DNA of 64,000 nucleotides from the NCBI RefSeq assembly GCF_024521635.1, contig NW_026250423.1, positions 62,001-126,000 of the forward strand. The letters run 5' to 3'. Numbering within the stretch: the first letter of the stretch is position 1; every line of letters starts with the position of its first letter. Position numbers and translations under genes: made by a program. Positions 28,683-64,000 of the stretch are shown here, piece after piece. The stretch is from Tricharina praecox. Its lineage: Eukaryota. The notes beneath the pieces are model-generated. The model was given only the letters and a program-made list of their open reading frames with translations, had not been told where the DNA came from and did not search any database.

Positions 28683-29370
28683 TTACTCAATGGTTCCACC
28701 ATTAACGTCGAGAACCTTGGGGATCAAAACATTCAACCCAACAGGTACCGTAAGCGTAATCTTGGGCAGATGCTTGGGGAGGCGGCAAGGCTTGTCTCCC
28801 GCGAGGTGGAAGCGGGCACCCTCAAAATCACCCTTGGCAGACAAAGCCACGAAGGCATGAGGCTTCATGGTGTAAAAAAAGGTGCTCTCTTTCATTGGAG
28901 GCTTCTTTTCGGCTTTCTTGGGGGTGACCTAAAGGATGTTGGCTGAGTGCATCTTAAATGTGAAAGAGGGCTTACCCGTCGTCCGGCCATCATGATCGCA
29001 ACCATCTCGGCTGTCAAGATACCTTTGCCACCGACCGTCGGCTTAGACTTCTCAACCTGGGACGGGATGTTAGGGGCTGGCTGGATGGATGGATAGGAAG
29101 GGGACTTACCTCGCTCTCAGAATGAGGGGCTGGGGAAACAGGGGCGACTGGGGAGACTGGGGAGTCCGGGGCGACGGGGGTGGCGGCAGCGGGAGCGGAA
29201 GCCATGGCAACCTTGCGGGCCGACCTGCGGATGGGAATAACCTTGCGTCTGGTGGTCTTCTTGGTAGCATTGTCATCCTCGGTGTCCTCGGAAGCATCAG
29301 ACTTGGGATCAGCAGCAGACGCCCCCTTGGCCCTGCTGCGAGCGCTGATGCGGGTGGACTTGCGAGCCAT
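28683..29370 (-). CDS. Hypothetical protein, divergent member of the EGARF family; exons 29370-29110, 29056-28976, 28928-28683 (a further GTAAGT donor at 28686 overlaps the stop)
   Basis: Canonical GT-AG phase-0 introns join a basic, S/P-rich N-terminus (MARKSTRISARSRAK...) to FFYTMKPHAFVALSAKGDFEGARFHLAGDKPCRLPKHLPKITLTVPVGLNV. A 5'-UTR intron ends CTAG-AGAA-ATG. Confidence 0.75.
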
Positions 29371-55700: not shown

Positions 55701-58700
55701 CGCGTCTGGAGCAACATGCCTCGTGGCCCTCCCAAGTTACCCAGCGCATATTTCTCCCCTTCTCTTTGCGGCCTAAACAAGTGACGGGAAGCCAACTTGC
55801 AGCTCCCGTAGTTACTGCACATCGGGAATATATCCGGTACGGTACTAGCTGGGCGGGACGGAGCGCAGCGCGGCGCGGCGGGGGTACGGCGGCAACTTCG
55901 AAACCGGATGCAACTGGCTGCGCGCATAAAATCGTGCGTCTGCTGCGCTCATCCTCCCTTCGCATCCTACTCTATTCTTCTGGGCGGTCGACTCGCTGTA
56001 TCGCTTCCAGTTTTTCTTCTTCTTTTCTTTCTGCAGGGCGATAATAATTTGTACCTATGGCACATACAAAGAAGATATCTGCCAGACAGCCGCAGCGTAA
56101 GCCATAGTACAATACACACGGGGGAATCCGAATACATCGGTAGGTACATACATACCATGTGCGAAGCCATGCATAACATGCATTCCCGCACACTTGTCAC
56201 TTTGCGGTGCGTGAACGTCGGCCGCTTGTCTGCCTGCCTGCCTGCCTAATCGGAGTGCCTGTGTAAGTATTCACGTTCACTCATGCGGTTCGTACGCACG
56301 CACGTACGTACGTACGGGGGGTGAAGGGGGAGAAAGAGAAAAAAACATCCTTAGCCTTAACTAGCCGAGAGGAACGGGCAGGAATACATGTGTAGATTGT
56401 ATGTATGAGGTATGTACCGACATATCTTCAATCTGGGTATAGTAGAGCACTCTGCCAGACAGTGACAGTGACAGCGGGTTGGATTCGATTCGAAGCGCGG
56501 GATATCGCGCAACAGTGTTGTTTGCCCACTCTGCGTGGCGATAGTGGCGATAATGCCGCCGTCCAGTCCCGCGCCGGTCGACCGAATCGCGGGCAAGGCG
56601 TGCAAACTCGGAGGAGAAAACTGCTGCGTAACGCCCGTGAGTGCCAGTGCCCGTGAAGTTGCGGTGTCCATAGCGGCTGTGGAGATTCCGACGCCGGTTA
56701 CTGAGTGTGGGTGTGAGTGTGAGTGTTTCACGGCAGAGCTGCCATCATCTATGCGGTAGTTAGACGTGGAGATTTCCGGTGCGAAATGGCAGGTGTCCCC
56801 AGGTGTCCCCAGTACCGTTCCCGACTGATGCCTCATGCCTCGTGCCTCATGTCTGATGAAACGGCCGGAAAGTCGGCGCGGTAATTCCGGCGCTTAGGAT
56901 GTATTGGGAGCCGGGGGCGGGAGTGAGCGGCCATGATTCGCGTATGCGACTCGACCCCAAACCAGATCCTGTGCGCACGTAGTTAGAGTAATCACGTCGG
57001 TCTGGATCGCTCTGTCCGGATCAGTCGCTCCGGCATCCCCCGGGCGCGGTAGAGTACATGACCGAGAGTTGATTGATGCGCCGCGCGAGTGATCAGTTGT
57101 GATCCGCCCTGCCCGCACCTCCTATCGTCGCCCGAATTCACACACAGCGCTGGTTAGCTCGGCCGAGCCTTCCGTGTGTTGCGGGCACTCAATACTAAAC
57201 CGGACTTGTAGCGGTATGGTCCGGTGCGGTGCGAGTGATTCCCCGCGCTGCAACTGGGAGCCGAATGTACATACCAACGAACGCTGCGTGCCTCGGAATG
57301 AACGGCTTCGCAAACAAGCCCGCTCATGTCGTTTCTAGTCTACCTATCTTCTGCCTCACGTCTCTCCCGTCAGTGGCTCGCCAATAGGTAGTACGCCGTG
57401 TCTTCGGATGACGCTGCTGTTGTCCTCGATCTCATCCGCACTCAGGGCGTGCATGTACGGAGCTGGATGGACTTATGTACTCTACTAGCATATCCCCAAC
57501 GCCTATTCCACTCCATACAGTGCTGGCGGTCCCCGCGCCTCACTGAATAACTCCGCAGCTGTGTTTCGTACTGGATCTTGGCCGCAGCCTGCGTACCAGC
57601 GTTACTGTTACATTCCCGCTCTTGTCTCGCCTCGGGGATATAGAGTAGAGGATAGAGGGTAGAGAGCAACTTCGGCACGGGGTTCTCCCCGTAGTTGTGG
57701 CGGAACGAAAATCAGAACATTGCGGAATGCAGGAGCTGGACGGATTTTGCTGCTGTTGAACGCGCCGAAGCAACTACATACAGAAATGGGGAACAGAAAA
57801 AACAAGCCGCCATCAGTCAGGACTCAGCCCCGTCCATCCTCCGCACACCGCTGCCAGCTCCTCGTCCCCCGGCTCCACACTTTCACCTCGCGGGTGATGT
57901 ATCATGACGCCAAGCCACACAGACGAGGAGCCAGCCCAGCCCATGAGCCGTCCTCTATGGACGATGGGGATGCCAGCGCTGCAATAACGGCGTCAATGGA
58001 GTGGGAGGAGTGGTGGAGGACGAGACTGTGTGGGACATCGAGGAGGCTCTGGACCGGTCAGAGCAGGCGGTTCAGTGACGGAAGGTTCAGTGACGGGAGG
58101 GTGAGGCGACGGCGGAGTTTCCTCGATCCGATCACTATCAGGAGCTCTCTTGGGGCTGGTGCCCTTGGATCCTACGTAGAGCGCGGGAAACCAGCCAGTC
58201 TTCTGGACTGTGGATAGGTATCAGGACACCGCTTCCCACAATGGACTGCACAGTGCACGCGGATTATGAGCGGTGAAGCAAGCAGGCAAGCAAACAGGCG
58301 GGGCGAAACGCTCGCTTTTTGATGATTAGCCAGTAACTACTGCCTGGTGGTCTGGAGGAGATGTTTACTCCGTCATGGTAGCCTTCCGGAATGTTCTGTC
58401 ATGCATTCCGCGGCAAGATCCGATCAATGGTCCGGACAGCGCAAGCGGTATCACCGCTCGGTGAGATTCAATGGCCCCGCGAGATTACTACTAGGCCTTC
58501 CCTCACCATCTGCCATTGAATCTCGCCAGCCTCAGATATTGAAGCTTCACCCCCACACCTACAAAACCCCTACTCCCACCCACCAACTTCTCTTCTTCTC
58601 TTCATCACACGTATCGGACATTCACACAACTCTCTGCGAGAACTAAAACGCAACATTTGAATATCCGAAGTAAGTAAATCCGCCTTATCACACAAATCAC

Positions 58701-58734
58701 TCGCAGATCACAAATACTAACTCGGATACCAGAG

Positions 58735-59337
58735 ATTTCCGGACAGCGATACAACCTGCGCAAGCGCGCCGCGAAGCCCGCAGCCACCGTCAATACTCCC
58801 GGCCGCAAGGCCAACAAGGTAAGCACAAGCCCACCCGCACTCCCACCCAATGCACGACATCTGACACCGCTCTGACAGAACCCCAAGTCCGCCAGCGGCG
58901 GCATCTCCAAGGCCGCGCGGGCGCCGAAGACATACGTCTACTGCATAAAGCCCAGCAGCATGGCTCGGCTCGCCGAATTGGAGTTCGGCGAGCACACCAC
59001 GCTCGTGGAGGGCGCGCGTTTCTACCTCCTGCCTGGAGGAAAGAAGCGCGCCCCGAGCGGCGTGGTGTCCATGAGGGTCACCGTGCCCGCTGGAGTTGAC
59101 GCCAAGTGGCTGGTGGAAATGGACTTGGAGGAGGAGTTCTTGGGGGAGGCGGATGAGCAGGTGATGGAGGAGGAGCGCCAGGCGGCGGCGGCGGAGCACG
59201 AGCAGGAGGAGAAGCTGGAACAGCAGATCCAGCAACAGCTGGAAAATGAACAGCTGGGGGAAGAGGAGCAAGCAGAAGTGGATAAAGAGGAGGAGGCGGC
59301 TGGCAACACCAGCCGCCGGAGTTGCATCGTAATGTAG
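58735..59337 (+). CDS. EGARF-family copy A; exons 58735-58818, 58879-59337; ATT in place of the paralogues' ATG (or start at internal ATG 58960); acidic coiled-coil tail ending in CaaX CIVM
   Basis: (I)SGQRYNLRKRAAKP..GRKANK/NPKSASGGISKAARAPKTYVYCIKPSSMARLAELEFGEHTTLVEGARFYLLPGGKKRAPSGVVSMRVTVPAGVDAKWLVEMDLEEEF...NTSRRSCIVM*. The phase-0 GTAAGC..CAG intron is at the same position as in copies B and C. Confidence 0.7.
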
Positions 59338-60399
59338 AAGACATTACTTTTTTTTCCATCTTCTTTCTTTTTTGCTTCCCGCGGCTAACCCCGACAGGGC
59401 TCCCTCATTCCCCGCTGCTGTCTACTGTCAGAGTAGAAGTGACAGACGCCGCTTCTCACGGCCATGGACTGCTCAGTGCATGCGGATGATGGGCGGCGAA
59501 GCAAGCAAGCGGGCAAAGCGCTCGCTTTTAATGATTGGGTAGTACTGACCGGCGGTGTGGAGGAGATGTTTACTCCGTGATGGTAGCCTCCTAGAACGTT
59601 CTGTGAAATCCGTGGGAAGATCTGATTAGAGGCCCTGACGGCGCTCGGTGAGGTTCAATAGCCTCCGCGAGGCTATTGCGTGGAATAGTGTTTTCTGAGG
59701 GATGACAATGTGCTTCAGGACGGCAGCTGTTACACTATGAAACGGCTCTCTACCACGACATGAACGAGGTATGGGGAACGAAAGCAAGATGATCGTCACG
59801 GCCGAGGCGCGAGCCTAAAATTATCTGTAGAAAAAGTGCTAAAGCCAAAACCCCGTGAAAACACACTAGCAAGCTTCGAAGCTTGCACGATTCTAAGCTC
59901 ACACCACCTATAAAACCACCCCTTCCCTCCTTCCATCTCTCCTTTCCTTTTTCTTCTTCAAGCACAGGCATGAGCAAAGCACAACAGCAGTGGCAAGAGT
60001 AAAGAGCAAGCACAGCAGTGGCAAGAGCACAGCGGATTGATATAACGCCCCTTACGTGGTCGAGGTTTTTTTCCTACGGGTTTCCTCATAAAAAACATCA
60101 TCTTCCTGGCTGCAATGCGAGGGGGTGAGATTTTTTTCTGGCTCTTCTCGGTCTAGGGTGGTAGCGGAGAGGCTCGGAGATCACGGTTCGTCGCAGATCG
60201 GCACGGTGATTCATCAGCATCCGGCGACGGGTGTGTGGGATCGTTGCCCATTATCGAGACACGCAGCAGTTGATCCGAAAGACCATCGCCGCACCGGTGA
60301 AGACGCCAGACGATCAAAGTCTCCACCACCAGCAGCAGCACGGGAGCCTCCGGTGGAGCACAGGGACCAAGAGTGGCCTGGAGGCACGCCGGTGTGCAG

Positions 60400-60560
60400 C
60401 GTTGGCAGTAGCTAGCCTATAGCCAAGATGGGCGCTTGACTCTGCCACGGCTACGTCCTCGGGAAGTAGTCGCCGTATGGTTGTCCTGAACAGTTCTTTC
60501 ATACCGATGGAACAACGTATCACTGAAGCGACGGCCTGAATCCGAGCAATCACTGGCCAG
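60400..60560 (-). mobile_element. Possible degenerate hAT-type transposase fragment within the insert between units A and B
   Basis: VIARIQAVASVIRCSIGMKELFRTTIRRLLPEDVAVAESSAHLGYRLA loosely resembles the hAT pattern I.K.R.....IR.S....F ... L..DV.TRWNST..ML.R. The RW core is missing. Confidence 0.2.
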
Positions 60561-60960
60561 TACCAAGATTGTGACCAGCAGCTAGGTCCGAATCTACTGA
60601 AGAGTGCGAAATATGCTCATCCGGCTTATATGTCGACTGTAGTTTTCTACAGCTGGTAAACCAAACAGCGTGCTTTCGTAATCGATTTGTCTGTGATAAC
60701 GAGGAAATGGAGCCTCTACTATTGCGTATTCGCAACTGGTATTACAGGCACAAATCACAGTATTGGGTTTGCAGGCTACTAAGGGTATCGCAGGCTCAAG
60801 CTCCGAAGTGCCTAGTCCTCCCGCTCAAACGCCTTGGAGGGCCGCGCCAGGGTAAGCCCTCCCGGAGACCTAGCCCCGCGCTGCCCGCTGGTGTACATAG
60901 AAGGGTTTCTTTTTGAATCCCGCTAGCCTCAGATGTTGAAGTTTCACCAACATATTCACC

Positions 60961-60967
60961 TATAAAA
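60961..60967 (+). promoter_or_regulatory. TATA box of copy B (TATAAAA); equivalents are TATAAAT at 63506 (copy C), TACAAAA at 58560 (copy A) and an orphan TATAAAA at 59909
   Basis: Positionally conserved within the repeated promoter block and followed by a pyrimidine-rich tract typical of fungal core promoters. Confidence 0.6.
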
Positions 60968-61133
60968 CCCCACGTCCGCCACCCACTTCTCTTCTTCTCT
61001 TCATCACACATATCGGACATTCACAAAATTCTCTGCGAAAACTAAAACGCAACATTTGAATATCCAAAGTAAGTAGATCCGTCTTATCACACAAATCACT
61101 CGCAGATCACAAATGCTAACTCGGATACCAGAG

Positions 61134-61605
61134 ATGTCAAAACACTCCTACAACCTGCGCAAGCGGGCTCCAAAGCCCGCTACCGCCATTCCGCATGGCC
61201 GCAAAGCTCCCGAGGTAGTTTGGCCCAACCCACACTCCTATCCGGCCGCATCTGACATCGTGTCCACAGATCTCCAAGTGCCTACAGATCTCCAAGTGCG
61301 CACGCGCACCGAAGACACACGTCTACTGCCTAAAGCCCGGCAGCATGGCTCGGCCCGCCGAAATAAATTTCGGCGAGCACACCACGCTCGTGGAGGGTGC
61401 GCGCTTCTACCTCCAGCCTGGAGGCAGGAAGTGCGCCCCACGCGGCGTGGTGTCCATGGTGATCACCGTGCCAGCTGAAGTCGACCTCCAGTGGCCGGTA
61501 GTAATGGACTTGGGGGAGGAGATCTCGGGGAAGGCGGAGGCGGGCACCAGGTGGAAGACACAAGGGAACCGAGAATTGTATCATCCGGTTCGACTCAGAC
61601 CCTGA
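61134..61605 (+). CDS. EGARF-family copy B; exons 61134-61214, 61270-61605; C-terminal tail apparently frameshifted
   Basis: MSKHSYNLRKRAPKP..GRKAPE/ISKCLQISKCARAPKTHVYCLKPGSMARPAEINFGEHTTLVEGARFYLQPGGRKCAPRGVVSMVITVPAEVDLQWPVVMDLGEE... An acidic tail (FDSDPESESEEPLISDEARRAIEEV...) lies in another frame at about 61589-61746. Confidence 0.7.
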
Positions 61606-61743
61606 GTCCGAGAGCGAAGAGCCCCTCATATCCGACGAAGCCCGCCGTGCAATCGAGGAGGTTGCCGGACACGACGGCGAAGAGCAGGAGCAGAATCTGC
61701 TGTTGCTCCCTGGCCTGGATCCGTGCGGAGCTATCGGCATTGA

Positions 61744-62055
61744 TTGAGATGGCACTCGGCAGTAACCTATATCACTAGAGATGGCGAAGCGGTATCCACA
61801 AGCTTGAGTGAAAGGGATAGTGCGGATGGACTGGAAAAATATGCTGTTTATGTCCGCCCCATGTGTAAAGATGTGGTGGCGGCGTTTATGGGGAGTACCA
61901 CTGGTGGCGGTAGATCCCAGGTGCTGGCAAGTGGGCCTGCGGGAATGGCGAGCGAATTGAGGGTTGCAGTCGCGGAATGCAACGACGCAGCGAGTGTCTG
62001 GAGGGGTGAAGAAGCGGCGGATGTGGGCCTGTATTGGGATAGCCGTTATTTGTGA
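61744..62055 (+). pseudogene. C-terminal fragment resembling the NAD-binding end of a fungal ferric-reductase (FRE/NOX-like) protein
   Basis: YITR...RPMCKDVVAAFM....RSQVLASGPAGMASELRVAVAECNDAASVWRGEEAADVGLYWDSR matches my recollection of the RP..V..F...SGP.GM...R..VA pattern of FRE NAD-binding domains. No N-terminal part is present. Confidence 0.6.
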
Positions 62056-63685
62056 GGAGTTCGTGCTTTTTCCTTTAGACTAATCCCCCAACGGTGGTTA
62101 ATTTCTTTTCTATTTTCTTTATTTTTGCTTCTCTCTCGCGACGCATCCTAAACGGCTGCGTGTGGTTGATTTGGTCCACAGGCGGATTGGCAAGAACACA
62201 ATCCGTTTCCTGCCCCTCCAAGCTGCCGGAGCGGCTGACCCGACAAGGCTCCCTCATTCCCCACTGTCCACTGTCAGAGCAGAAGTGACAGACACCGCTT
62301 CTCGCCATGGACTGCACAGTGCACGCGGGTAATGGGCGGCGAAGCAAGCGGACAAGCGGACAAGCGGACAAGCGAGCATGCGCTCCCTTTTTGATGATCA
62401 GCTAGTAACTGCTGCACGGTGGATGTTCGTTACGTCCAAGGTGGGCTACGAAGGAAGCCGCTGCTGCTGGCTTCATATTTCTTCTGCCCTAAGCGTAATA
62501 AGTAATTCCTGCTGAGGGAGGAGATCATTACTCCGTCATGGTAGCCTTCTAGAAAGTTTTGTGCAATCTATGGGAAGATCTGCATCAGGAAAAAAGAGAG
62601 TGCACGCCCGATACAACCGGGTGTCCGAGGTGTTTGACAGGCCTCGGACAGTAACTCCCTCTACCGTACGAGGCTAGTCGAGGGGTTTTGCTTGAACGCA
62701 GCATGGCAGGCTGTTTGGTGTTCCCCACGGAGCGCTTGACTCTTTAAGCGCGATTTAACGCCCAGCGGCAGTATAAAACGTAGCACTCCCAGCGTGCCTC
62801 TTTACAGGCACTAGACGGTAACGCCTCTATCCGGACGTGACGGTCGAGGCACTCGACAAGTTTGAACGTAGCAAGCGGGGCGTTTGGGGTTCCACGCTGG
62901 GTCTTCGAATCTTCAGATACAGTATAACTCCTTGCCCTCTTCATCGGTTGAAGGGATGAACATTCACTGATCCAAACATATATTGCGTCTAGCCTTCGAG
63001 GCGCAATACATCTTCTCAACCTGAGGTTCCATTTTTTCTATCTAATCAATCCTACATATTTAAAGCGAGTCTGACGCGATACACCCGGCTAGCAGCCAGC
63101 AAAAAATGCGAGGGGAAGAAGGTGTTGTATCCACGGCGAGGAAATTGTGGTATCCGCGGGGGGACAGGCTAAATACTGTAGGAAGGCATATGAGGATGAT
63201 ACATAGCGGCTGTAGTTGGAAGATCAGAGGCTATCCGACAGCGAAGGACACCGAGGAAAGCGTGCTATCCACGGCGAAGAGAGTGTGGTATCTGCGGCGA
63301 GAAAGGGCTGATAGTACTACAGAGCGGCTTAGGGGGAGAATACGGCAGTCATATGAGGTCCGGACGGCGCGAGCGGTATAGCCGCTCGGTGAGGTTTAAT
63401 AGCCCCATGAGGTTATTACTAGTCCTGCCCTCACCATCTGCGATTGAATCTCGTCAGCCTCTGACAGGTATTGAAGCTTATCCTCAAGCCTGGATCACCA
63501 ACACCTATAAATCCCCACGTCCACCCACTTCTCTTCTTCTTCTCCTCTTCTCTTCATCACACACACCGCACATTCACTCAACTCTCTGCGTAAACCAAAA
63601 CGCAAAATTTGAATATCCAAAGTAGATCCATCTTATCACACACACTCACTCGCAATAATGTATGCTGACATGATATCTACTAAAG

Positions 63686-64000
63686 ATGTCCGGACACAAT
63701 CACAACCTGCAGAAGCGCGCCACCAAGGCCGCTACCACCGTCAAGCCTGCCCGCAACTCCCCCAAGGTGAGCATGACCCGCACTCCTATCGCACTGCATC
63801 TGACACGGCGCTCGTAGATCCCCAAGGCCGCGAGCGGCATTTCCAAGTCCGCCCGCGCCAAGAAGTACATATACGCCCTCAAGCCCACCACCATGGCTCG
63901 GCTCGCGGACATCGAGTTCGACGAGCACACCACGCTGGTGGAGGGTGCGCGTTTCTACCTCCAGCCTGGAGGTAGGAAGCGCGCCCCCAGCGGCGTGGTG
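63686..64000 (+). CDS. EGARF-family copy C (truncated by the window end); exons 63686-63766, 63818->64000
   Basis: MSGHNHNLQKRATKAATTVKPARNSPK/IPKAASGISKSARAKKYIYALKPTTMARLADIEFDEHTTLVEGARFYLQPGGRKRAPSGVV. The GTGAGC..TAG phase-0 intron is at the same position as in copies A and B. Confidence 0.8.

Follow-up and report, generated by a model that had tools for sequence, protein, structure and literature searches.

Organisation of the array

At the right-hand end of a 64,000-nucleotide (nt) stretch of the Tricharina praecox genome (contig NW_026250423.1, positions 62,001 to 126,000 of the forward strand; hereafter the window, in whose own coordinates all positions are given) lie three homologous genes for small, highly charged proteins, here called A, B and C. 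They stand head to tail, with start positions at 58735, 61134 and 63686, an arrangement first given in a preliminary description of this DNA and borne out here both by a repeat search and by blastn. The repeat search delimits a 141-nt core in direct copies at 58927, 61312 and 63860 (identities of 89% and 85%, spacings of 2385 and 2548 nt), and an 86-nt block of the 5′ untranslated region (5′-UTR) at 58587, 60986 and 63539 (88–94% identical). When positions 56000–64000 were compared with the whole window by blastn, A aligned with B (58516–59153 to 60913–61538; 642 columns, 80.8%, expectation value (E) 3e-167), A with C (58429–59067 to 63357–64000; 669 columns, 75.8%, E 1e-128) and B with C (60957–61452 to 63502–64000; 516 columns, 74.6%), and no further copy of the unit was found elsewhere in the 64 kilobases (kb).

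Common to all three copies are a promoter, a 5′-UTR exon of 83 nt with its intron, a short basic exon, a phase-0 intron and a domain of about 65 amino acids (aa). As had been proposed, the 5′-UTR intron (63, 63 and 64 nt in A, B and C) stops just short of the start position, by 2, 2 and 0 nt respectively; the basic first coding exon has 28, 27 and 27 codons; and the phase-0 intron, behind which the domain exon begins, measures 60, 55 and 51 nt. All six introns have GT..AG ends. The copies are of even base composition with a G+C content of 53–56%, and scans with Rfam and for transfer RNAs gave no match.

The intact copy and its spliced form

Copy C is the intact member of the array; its features, some of which are matched by contigs of a sequencing run that we call X1, are as follows.

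63357..63621, forward strand: promoter-proximal block (TATAAAT) and 5′-UTR exon; an X1 contig is colinear from about 63513
63622..63685, forward strand: 5′-UTR intron, ending directly before the ATG; the X1 joint skips 64 nt, GT..AG
63686..63766, forward strand: first coding exon of 27 codons, beginning with ATG; P0004 begins identically
63767..63817, forward strand: phase-0 intron; the X1 joint skips 51 nt, GT..AG (cut +2)
63818..64000, forward strand: domain exon, running past the end of the window

The full product of copy C, P0004, is 160 aa long and ends in an acidic tail and the residues Cys-Ile-Val-Met (CIVM); its first 88 residues are those of the exons in the window. A 566-nt X1 contig skips 63622–63685 and 63767–63817 exactly and extends beyond the window end, and with it a probable spliced transcript, which the preliminary description had called for, is found: both introns of copy C, the one in the 5′-UTR included, are skipped in a single contig. 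X1 is a small run, labelled “RNA?” by guess, whose RNA nature is not on record; the spliced form itself argues for complementary DNA (cDNA). A second, colinear X1 contig of 241 nt covers 61591–61831 in the 3′ part of B. X1 has no contig over copy A or over the 5′ half of B, from which nothing follows for the expression of either, and three soil metatranscriptome runs (X2–X4) gave no matching contigs.

The damaged copies

Copy A has the following parts.

58516..58669, forward strand: promoter-proximal block and 5′-UTR exon, the exon 94% identical to that of B and 87% to that of C
58670..58732, forward strand: 5′-UTR intron, GTAAGT..CAG, branch site TACTAAC; predicted from its homology to that of C
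58735..58818, forward strand: basic first coding exon, 28 codons, with ATT at the start position
58819..58878, forward strand: phase-0 intron, GTAAGC..CAG
58879..59338, forward strand: second coding exon: domain (about 65 aa), acidic tail rich in Glu and Gln, and conserved C-terminus with Cys-Ile-Val-Met before the stop

The start codon that had been placed at 58735 does not stand, for this position reads ATT in A, against ATG in B and C, and the first ATG of the spliced model is at 58960, within the domain. The TATA-like box reads TACAAAA in A, TATAAAA in B and TATAAAT in C. In the public model of A (P0003, 255 aa) the first 75 residues come from 56553–56714 and 56869–56946 of the forward strand, about 2 kb upstream; these exons are probably an annotation rescue or artefact, borrowed, as seems likely, because copy A has no ATG of its own.

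Copy B has its ATG and has exchanged its tail.

60913..61068, forward strand: promoter-proximal block (TATAAAA) and 5′-UTR exon
61069..61131, forward strand: 5′-UTR intron, 95% identical to that of A
61134..61214, forward strand: first coding exon, ATG, 27 codons
61215..61269, forward strand: phase-0 intron, its acceptor repeated downstream
61270..61747, forward strand: domain exon and non-homologous replacement tail, without a CaaX box

Homology between A and B ends after the domain, where about 0.5–0.7 kb of unrelated sequence stands in place of A's tail. The frame of B stops at 61600–61602, and the acidic stretch downstream is read in a different frame and shows no alignment to A. The acidic tail that the preliminary description had assigned to the family is present in A and C, while B has no homologous one. 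The public model of B (P0007) removes a third intron, 61491–61557, and so reaches a different acidic C-terminus that ends at 61747. B also carries an 18-nt tandem duplication (61270–61287) in which the intron acceptor and the first 12 bases of the exon are repeated, giving a second in-frame acceptor at 61287/61288, 18 nt from the first. A fragment of copy B from another assembly, P0009 (a Logan contig of 1579 nt), reads through the third intron that P0007 removes and differs in one residue, with Trp for Arg after the internal Met.

In the leaders (58587–58732, 60986–61131 and 63539–63685), A and B are 94% identical in the 5′-UTR exon and 95% in the 5′-UTR intron, against 70% in the first coding exon. 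The greater likeness of the leader may reflect gene conversion, a constraint acting on it, or a basic tail that changes quickly.

The predicted protein and its C-terminus

The intact product of about 160 aa has four parts: a Lys/Arg/Ala/Pro-rich N-terminal tail, the small, β-rich domain of about 65 aa, a Glu/Gln-rich helical tail, and a conserved C-terminus of 13 residues that carries a CaaX box. Charge is distributed very unevenly along the chain, with 11–14 Lys or Arg against 0–2 Asp or Glu in the 45 residues before the domain, and 15–50 Asp or Glu after it. The CaaX box is new relative to the preliminary description, which had not seen it. It reads CIVM in A, in C (P0004) and in P0016, and CINM, whose second “a” residue is not aliphatic, in P0006; each of the four models with a Cys fourth from the end has Met as its last residue. 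Pairwise identity among the five CaaX-type models (mean of 10 pairs) is 64% in the last 13 residues, as compared with 66% in the domain and 47% in the acidic linker between the two.

A final Met, Ser, Gln, Ala or Cys directs farnesyl rather than geranylgeranyl to a CaaX box, and farnesyl is the lipid predicted here because the final Met favours it. The usual hydropathy cut-off for a membrane span is 1.6; the maximum 19-residue Kyte–Doolittle mean is 0.49–1.35 across the eight models, so that hydropathy indicates neither a membrane span nor a signal peptide in any of them, although no dedicated signal-peptide predictor was run. With no hydrophobic segment in the chain, the C-terminus is expected to be accessible in the cytosol.

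A nuclear or chromatin-associated role had been put forward on the strength of the basic and acidic tails. A pattern like a bipartite nuclear localisation signal (NLS) occurs in the basic tail of four of the eight models, copy C, the intact one, not being among them; the basic tail is a weak pointer to a nuclear destination. The conserved CaaX box would point to membrane anchoring rather than to a role in the nucleus or on chromatin.

A domain new to the databases searched

The domain had not been recognised when the array was first described, and it matched no Pfam family at cut-off and no known fold in the searches that we ran. Pfam-A gave nothing at the gathering cut-off, whether with the exon translations or with the full proteins; the best sub-threshold scores, DUF4746 (14.7 bits, cut-off 27) and SAM_LFY (19.8 bits, cut-off 25.2), fall on low-complexity or short stretches. 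A sequence profile search of the PDB returned Hsp70 substrate-binding fragments at a best E of 0.11, which is not significant.

AlphaFold2, run on the alignment of paralogues, gave a predicted local distance difference test score (pLDDT) of about 80 for residues 41–110 of C, with strands at 42–48, 72–75, 89–94 and 105–107, a helix at 50–57 and a long helix at 116–144 in the acidic tail. Modelled alone, the domain has a pLDDT of 76.8 and a predicted template modelling score of 0.61. With this uncertain model as the query, Foldseek against the PDB reached a best E of 0.46 with the full model and of 1.7 with the domain, and BFVD one of 0.61, while VIA-align against 48,161 chains matched the full model through its helix only (Z about 4) and the domain to no chain at Z ≥ 2. 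The Protein Atlas gave no usable feature match to the protein as a whole; the domain scored at most 0.83, to unnamed clusters, with structural template modelling (TM) scores all <0.5. A predicted complex of two domain copies scored 0.00, which gives no verdict either way. The domain is thus new to the databases searched.

Family members and taxonomic range

The preliminary description had considered the family lineage-specific, and this view has been strengthened: all eight annotated relatives are hypothetical proteins of T. praecox, located in about four places on three contigs. Copies outside the window were studied as annotated proteins. A word-indexed protein search found three family proteins, whereas an exhaustive phmmer search with the 84-residue domain region of A against 1.84 billion cluster representatives found 12 proteins at E ≤ 0.001, of which seven belong to the family, namely the T. 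praecox models P0003–P0008 and the copy B fragment P0009. A profile search found nine proteins, all of the family, and added P0015 and P0016. Neither phmmer nor the profile search revealed a credible relative outside T. praecox among the 1.84 billion representatives. In JGI metagenome contigs, a peptide-pattern scan matched 129 stretches, none of which was confirmed, and a degenerate DNA pattern of the most conserved motif had no matches.

The other five phmmer matches, P0010–P0014, were rejected as relatives, being long repetitive proteins with 4–8 weak stretches each. The four that were inspected (all except P0011, of 6707 aa) comprise cadherin repeats, SprB repeats, DUF7507/SpaA repeats and one protein without a Pfam family. 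For the long cadherin-repeat protein P0010, the phmmer E sums five weak stretches, and hhalign gave a probability of 2% over 26 columns.

The accessions of A and B are consecutive, with P0015 on the same contig, of 696,801 base pairs (bp), 37 accessions away; P0008, P0006 and P0016 span no more than 14 accessions on a second contig of 758,898 bp, and P0005 is alone on a third. We infer that accession order reflects gene order. The family divides into two subtypes, a CaaX type (A, C, P0006, P0008 and P0016) and a type (P0005 and P0015) that lacks the box and whose longer, Asp/Glu-rich tail has Glu as its last residue. Models other than that of copy C vary from 103 to 306 aa in length, and in P0006 and P0008, which are fused models, the domain is present twice or one and a half times. 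The paralogues on the three contigs are 53–72% identical to C and keep the same invariant residues and four-part layout. At the level of titles and abstracts, we found no description in the literature, T. praecox papers included, either of the family or of a Pezizomycete a-factor.

Selection and decay of the copies

Over the 88–91 codons shared by A, B and C, the ratio of non-synonymous to synonymous substitution rates (dN/dS; Nei–Gojobori) is 0.57–0.59 overall, 0.48–0.62 in the basic part and 0.52–0.81 in the domain. These values (0.48–0.81) are not near 1 outright, but are statistically indistinguishable from it. The coding parts differ by five insertions or deletions, each a multiple of three (3, 6, 3, 3 and 18 nt), whereas the intron lengths differ by non-multiples of three. 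As far as the sequences indicate, we see in this a constraint that is real but relaxed, the relaxation owing in part to the damage in two of the three copies.

With one intact copy (C), one without a start (A) and one without its tail (B), the array displays the birth and death that had been proposed for it. The preliminary description had also named three outcomes that would speak against it: a match to a known family, a lack of spliced transcripts from every copy, and a dN/dS near 1. None of them emerged outright, the searches having given no known-family match, spliced RNA for one copy and a dN/dS of 0.5–0.8.

Flanks and surroundings of the array

Co-duplication of about 500 bp of non-coding flank had also been described. 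The duplication is real; it is, however, in pieces, split by unrelated DNA in B and C. The recurring part is an upstream module, present three times.

58225..58442, forward strand: upstream module, copy 1; recurs twice (repeat search and blastn)
59381..59644, forward strand: 3′ flank of A and upstream module copy 2, the module part (59445–59644) 73% identical to copy 1
62231..62582, forward strand: 3′ flank of B and upstream module copy 3, the module parts (62291–62422 and 62517–62582) 80–87% identical to copy 1

Between this module and the promoter lie 1.27 kb of unrelated DNA in unit B (59645–60912) and 0.77 kb in unit C (62583–63356). The former contains a fourth, weaker TATA/pyrimidine block at 59905–59953 (67%), and the latter two direct repeats of 54 nt at 63115 and 63253 (78%). 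Within module copy 1, TTCCGGAATGTTC at 58384–58396 (forward strand) is the sole perfect instance of the heat-shock-element-like pattern TTCnnGAAnnTTC in the 64-kb window; at least one perfect match occurs in 30 of 100 shuffles, and the other two module copies retain two of its three units. In a fire-following fungus, a heat-shock element in the upstream module would deserve attention, but it is only a lead.

One further gene of the window, gene D, is a tentative distant paralogue.

28683..29370, reverse strand: gene D (tblastn, BLASTP and family hidden Markov model)

In our own three-exon model (29370–29110, 29056–28976 and 28928–28686 plus stop), the 5′-UTR intron ends 4 nt before the ATG, the N-terminus is basic and the last exon has the Y..KP, EGARF and TVPxG motifs. 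Three family queries hit 28707–28922 of the reverse strand by tblastn at E 0.002–0.004; BLASTP gives 31% identity over 65 residues with a pairwise E of 1e-6; and the family hidden Markov model scores gene D at E 0.0098, the best non-family score among 1472 pieces of open reading frames (ORFs). From these sequence comparisons, the case for gene D as a paralogue is marginal. Its last exon had no hits among 58 candidates when compared with proteins of 143–2000 aa. The predicted N-terminus, Met-Ala-Arg-Lys-Ser-Thr, resembles the ARKS motif of histone H3 tails, possibly by chance.

In the window at large, the long ORFs that match Pfam (DAO, Arb1, inositol polyphosphate kinase, zinc alcohol dehydrogenase and TFIIA gamma) all fall within the first 16 kb. 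Between 22 and 62 kb, 20 long ORFs were tested and none matches Pfam, and for this reason we place the array in an orphan-rich stretch.

Discussion

On balance, we favour the view that the array belongs to a taxon-restricted family of T. praecox that turns over by birth and death and encodes small, probably farnesylated proteins. The Cys of the CaaX box would be farnesylated, the last three residues (AAX) trimmed and the new end methylated by the standard eukaryotic pathway; the lipid would tether the protein to a membrane, on its cytosolic or nucleoplasmic side, and the domain and basic tail would be left free to bind a partner, as the working end. The family evolves by tandem duplication followed by decay. 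In the array, copy C is intact, spliced and probably transcribed, A is without its ATG and has a changed TATA-like box, and B has another tail in place of its own and of the CaaX box.

Several points weigh against this view. The CaaX box is absent from three of the eight models (B/P0007, P0005 and P0015), and P0008, a fused model, has Cys-Ile-Asp followed by read-through; the predicted prenylation is itself read from a four-residue motif only. The splicing evidence is one contig of X1, and a processed DNA copy elsewhere would look alike. Restriction to T. praecox depends on which Pezizomycete genomes are present in the databases searched. The AlphaFold2 model is built on 8–9 paralogous sequences, an alignment so shallow that the model may be wrong, and the Atlas model of the same protein, made from the single sequence, has a pLDDT of 0.41. 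Finally, dN/dS does not differ significantly from 1 in any pair or any of the six comparisons (Fisher p 0.066–1.0), so that ongoing selection on the three copies would be unproven by this measure.

The last two of these points would equally suit young, largely functionless ORFs, that is, a duplicated transcribed stretch with drifting frames in which the CaaX box and the domain are kept only because the copies are recent, and so would the visible damage to two of the three array copies and the failure of the searches to find any relative outside the species. We consider this unlikely, if worth keeping in mind, for drifting frames do not readily account for five in-frame indels out of five, for paralogues at 53–72% identity that keep their invariant residues and layout on three contigs, for a C-terminal 13 residues better conserved than the linker before them, or for the precise splicing of copy C. 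A selfish or conflict locus, such as a meiotic driver, a spore killer or an allorecognition gene, was raised as a possibility in the preliminary description. The circumstances fit, in that the family is species-restricted, multi-copy and clustered and gains and loses copies fast, but there is no likeness to a known driver or het domain in Pfam, dN/dS is below 1 in all pairs with no sign of positive selection, and none of the analyses run, which do not bear on segregation or incompatibility, lends support; we hold this to be improbable. Cargo or remnants of a transposable element, with the protein as a transposon protein, would explain a repeated unit with dispersed copies on three contigs and the unrelated DNA inserted into units B (1.27 kb) and C (0.77 kb). 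Of the explanations considered this is the one that we credit least: no transposase, reverse-transcriptase or integrase domain occurs in the family proteins or in the 30 window ORFs of at least 150 aa (inverted terminal repeats were not searched for), the promoters are of the ordinary fungal kind, the introns are spliceosomal, the G+C content is normal, and the 64-kb window holds no further copy of the unit.

The C-terminus also brings to mind the farnesylated mating pheromones. Members of the family could be unusually long precursors of the a-factor kind, from which the C-terminal peptide is released and exported, leaving the upstream protein as a pro-region. According to PMC10569646, a-factor precursors are shorter than 100 aa, with CAAX the only strict feature and endings that include CIVM, which is listed for putative a-factors of Leotiomycetes; the same paper states that a-factor had previously not been found beyond Sordariomycetes and yeasts. 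The CIVM ending, which fits the CAAX or CPAX motif of such precursors, the conservation of the last 13 residues after a variable acidic stretch and the multi-copy genes, of a sort poorly handled by automatic annotation, are all in keeping with such precursors. At 160 aa for copy C and 103–306 aa for the others, however, the family proteins are at least three times as long as such precursors, which in Leotiomycetes measure 45–64 aa (PMC10569646). They would also have a conserved folded domain, which a-factor precursors lack, and a long acidic helix; Gly-Tyr is absent from the last 21 alignment columns in all five CaaX-type models; the N-terminus is rich in Lys, Arg, Ala and Pro where the criterion is one rich in Ser and Thr; the putative mature peptide is polar and basic; two paralogues have the domain without a CaaX box; and no homologue was found in other fungi. 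The h-type precursor HPP1 (PMC3068285) has repeated CaaX-like motifs and Kex2 sites, both of which the family lacks. We therefore regard pheromone precursors as very unlikely, and attach an equally small chance to the broader proposal that the family is the missing a-factor-type farnesylated pheromone system of the Pezizomycetes, with long multi-copy precursors in which the domain and acidic helix serve as the pro-region.

Returning to a family of farnesylated intracellular proteins, its members share with CaaX prenylated proteins such as Ras-family GTPases and fungal a-factors the Cys-aliphatic-aliphatic-Met end, the lack, by hydropathy, of a signal peptide or membrane span, and one or two basic residues just before the Cys. 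They differ in that the rest of the protein resembles none of these, that three of eight paralogues have no motif and that the lipid is a prediction. B-type lamins and Drosophila Kugelkern are examples of proteins that unite a helical region and a CaaX box with a basic stretch that targets the nucleus, and in them this combination brings about tethering to the inner nuclear membrane. The family has a comparable basic tail, helical segment and C-terminal farnesylation signal, but shows no similarity to these proteins in sequence or fold, and the NLS-like pattern is confined to half of the models, copy C not among them. Tandem, taxonomically restricted families of small proteins are a general fungal phenomenon, and as a phenomenon this birth-and-death family is ordinary in fungal genomes: like others, it is species-limited and clustered, with intact copies beside decayed and fused ones. 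Unlike those of most families of the effector type, its proteins are charged, intracellular and CaaX-bearing, and neither secreted nor cysteine-rich.

For annotation, the family flags particular problems, in that P0003 borrows exons from 2 kb upstream and two of the paralogues are fused models. No relative of the domain could be detected in databases of sequences or folds, so that an experimental structure could reveal a small fold not seen before. As to function, the only concrete clue is the conserved CaaX box, which offers a handle through localisation and lipidation. If our reading is correct, this would be a family born and expanded in one fungal lineage, in which intact, start-less, tail-swapped and fused copies stand side by side, and the array would be useful for studying how new genes arise and die.

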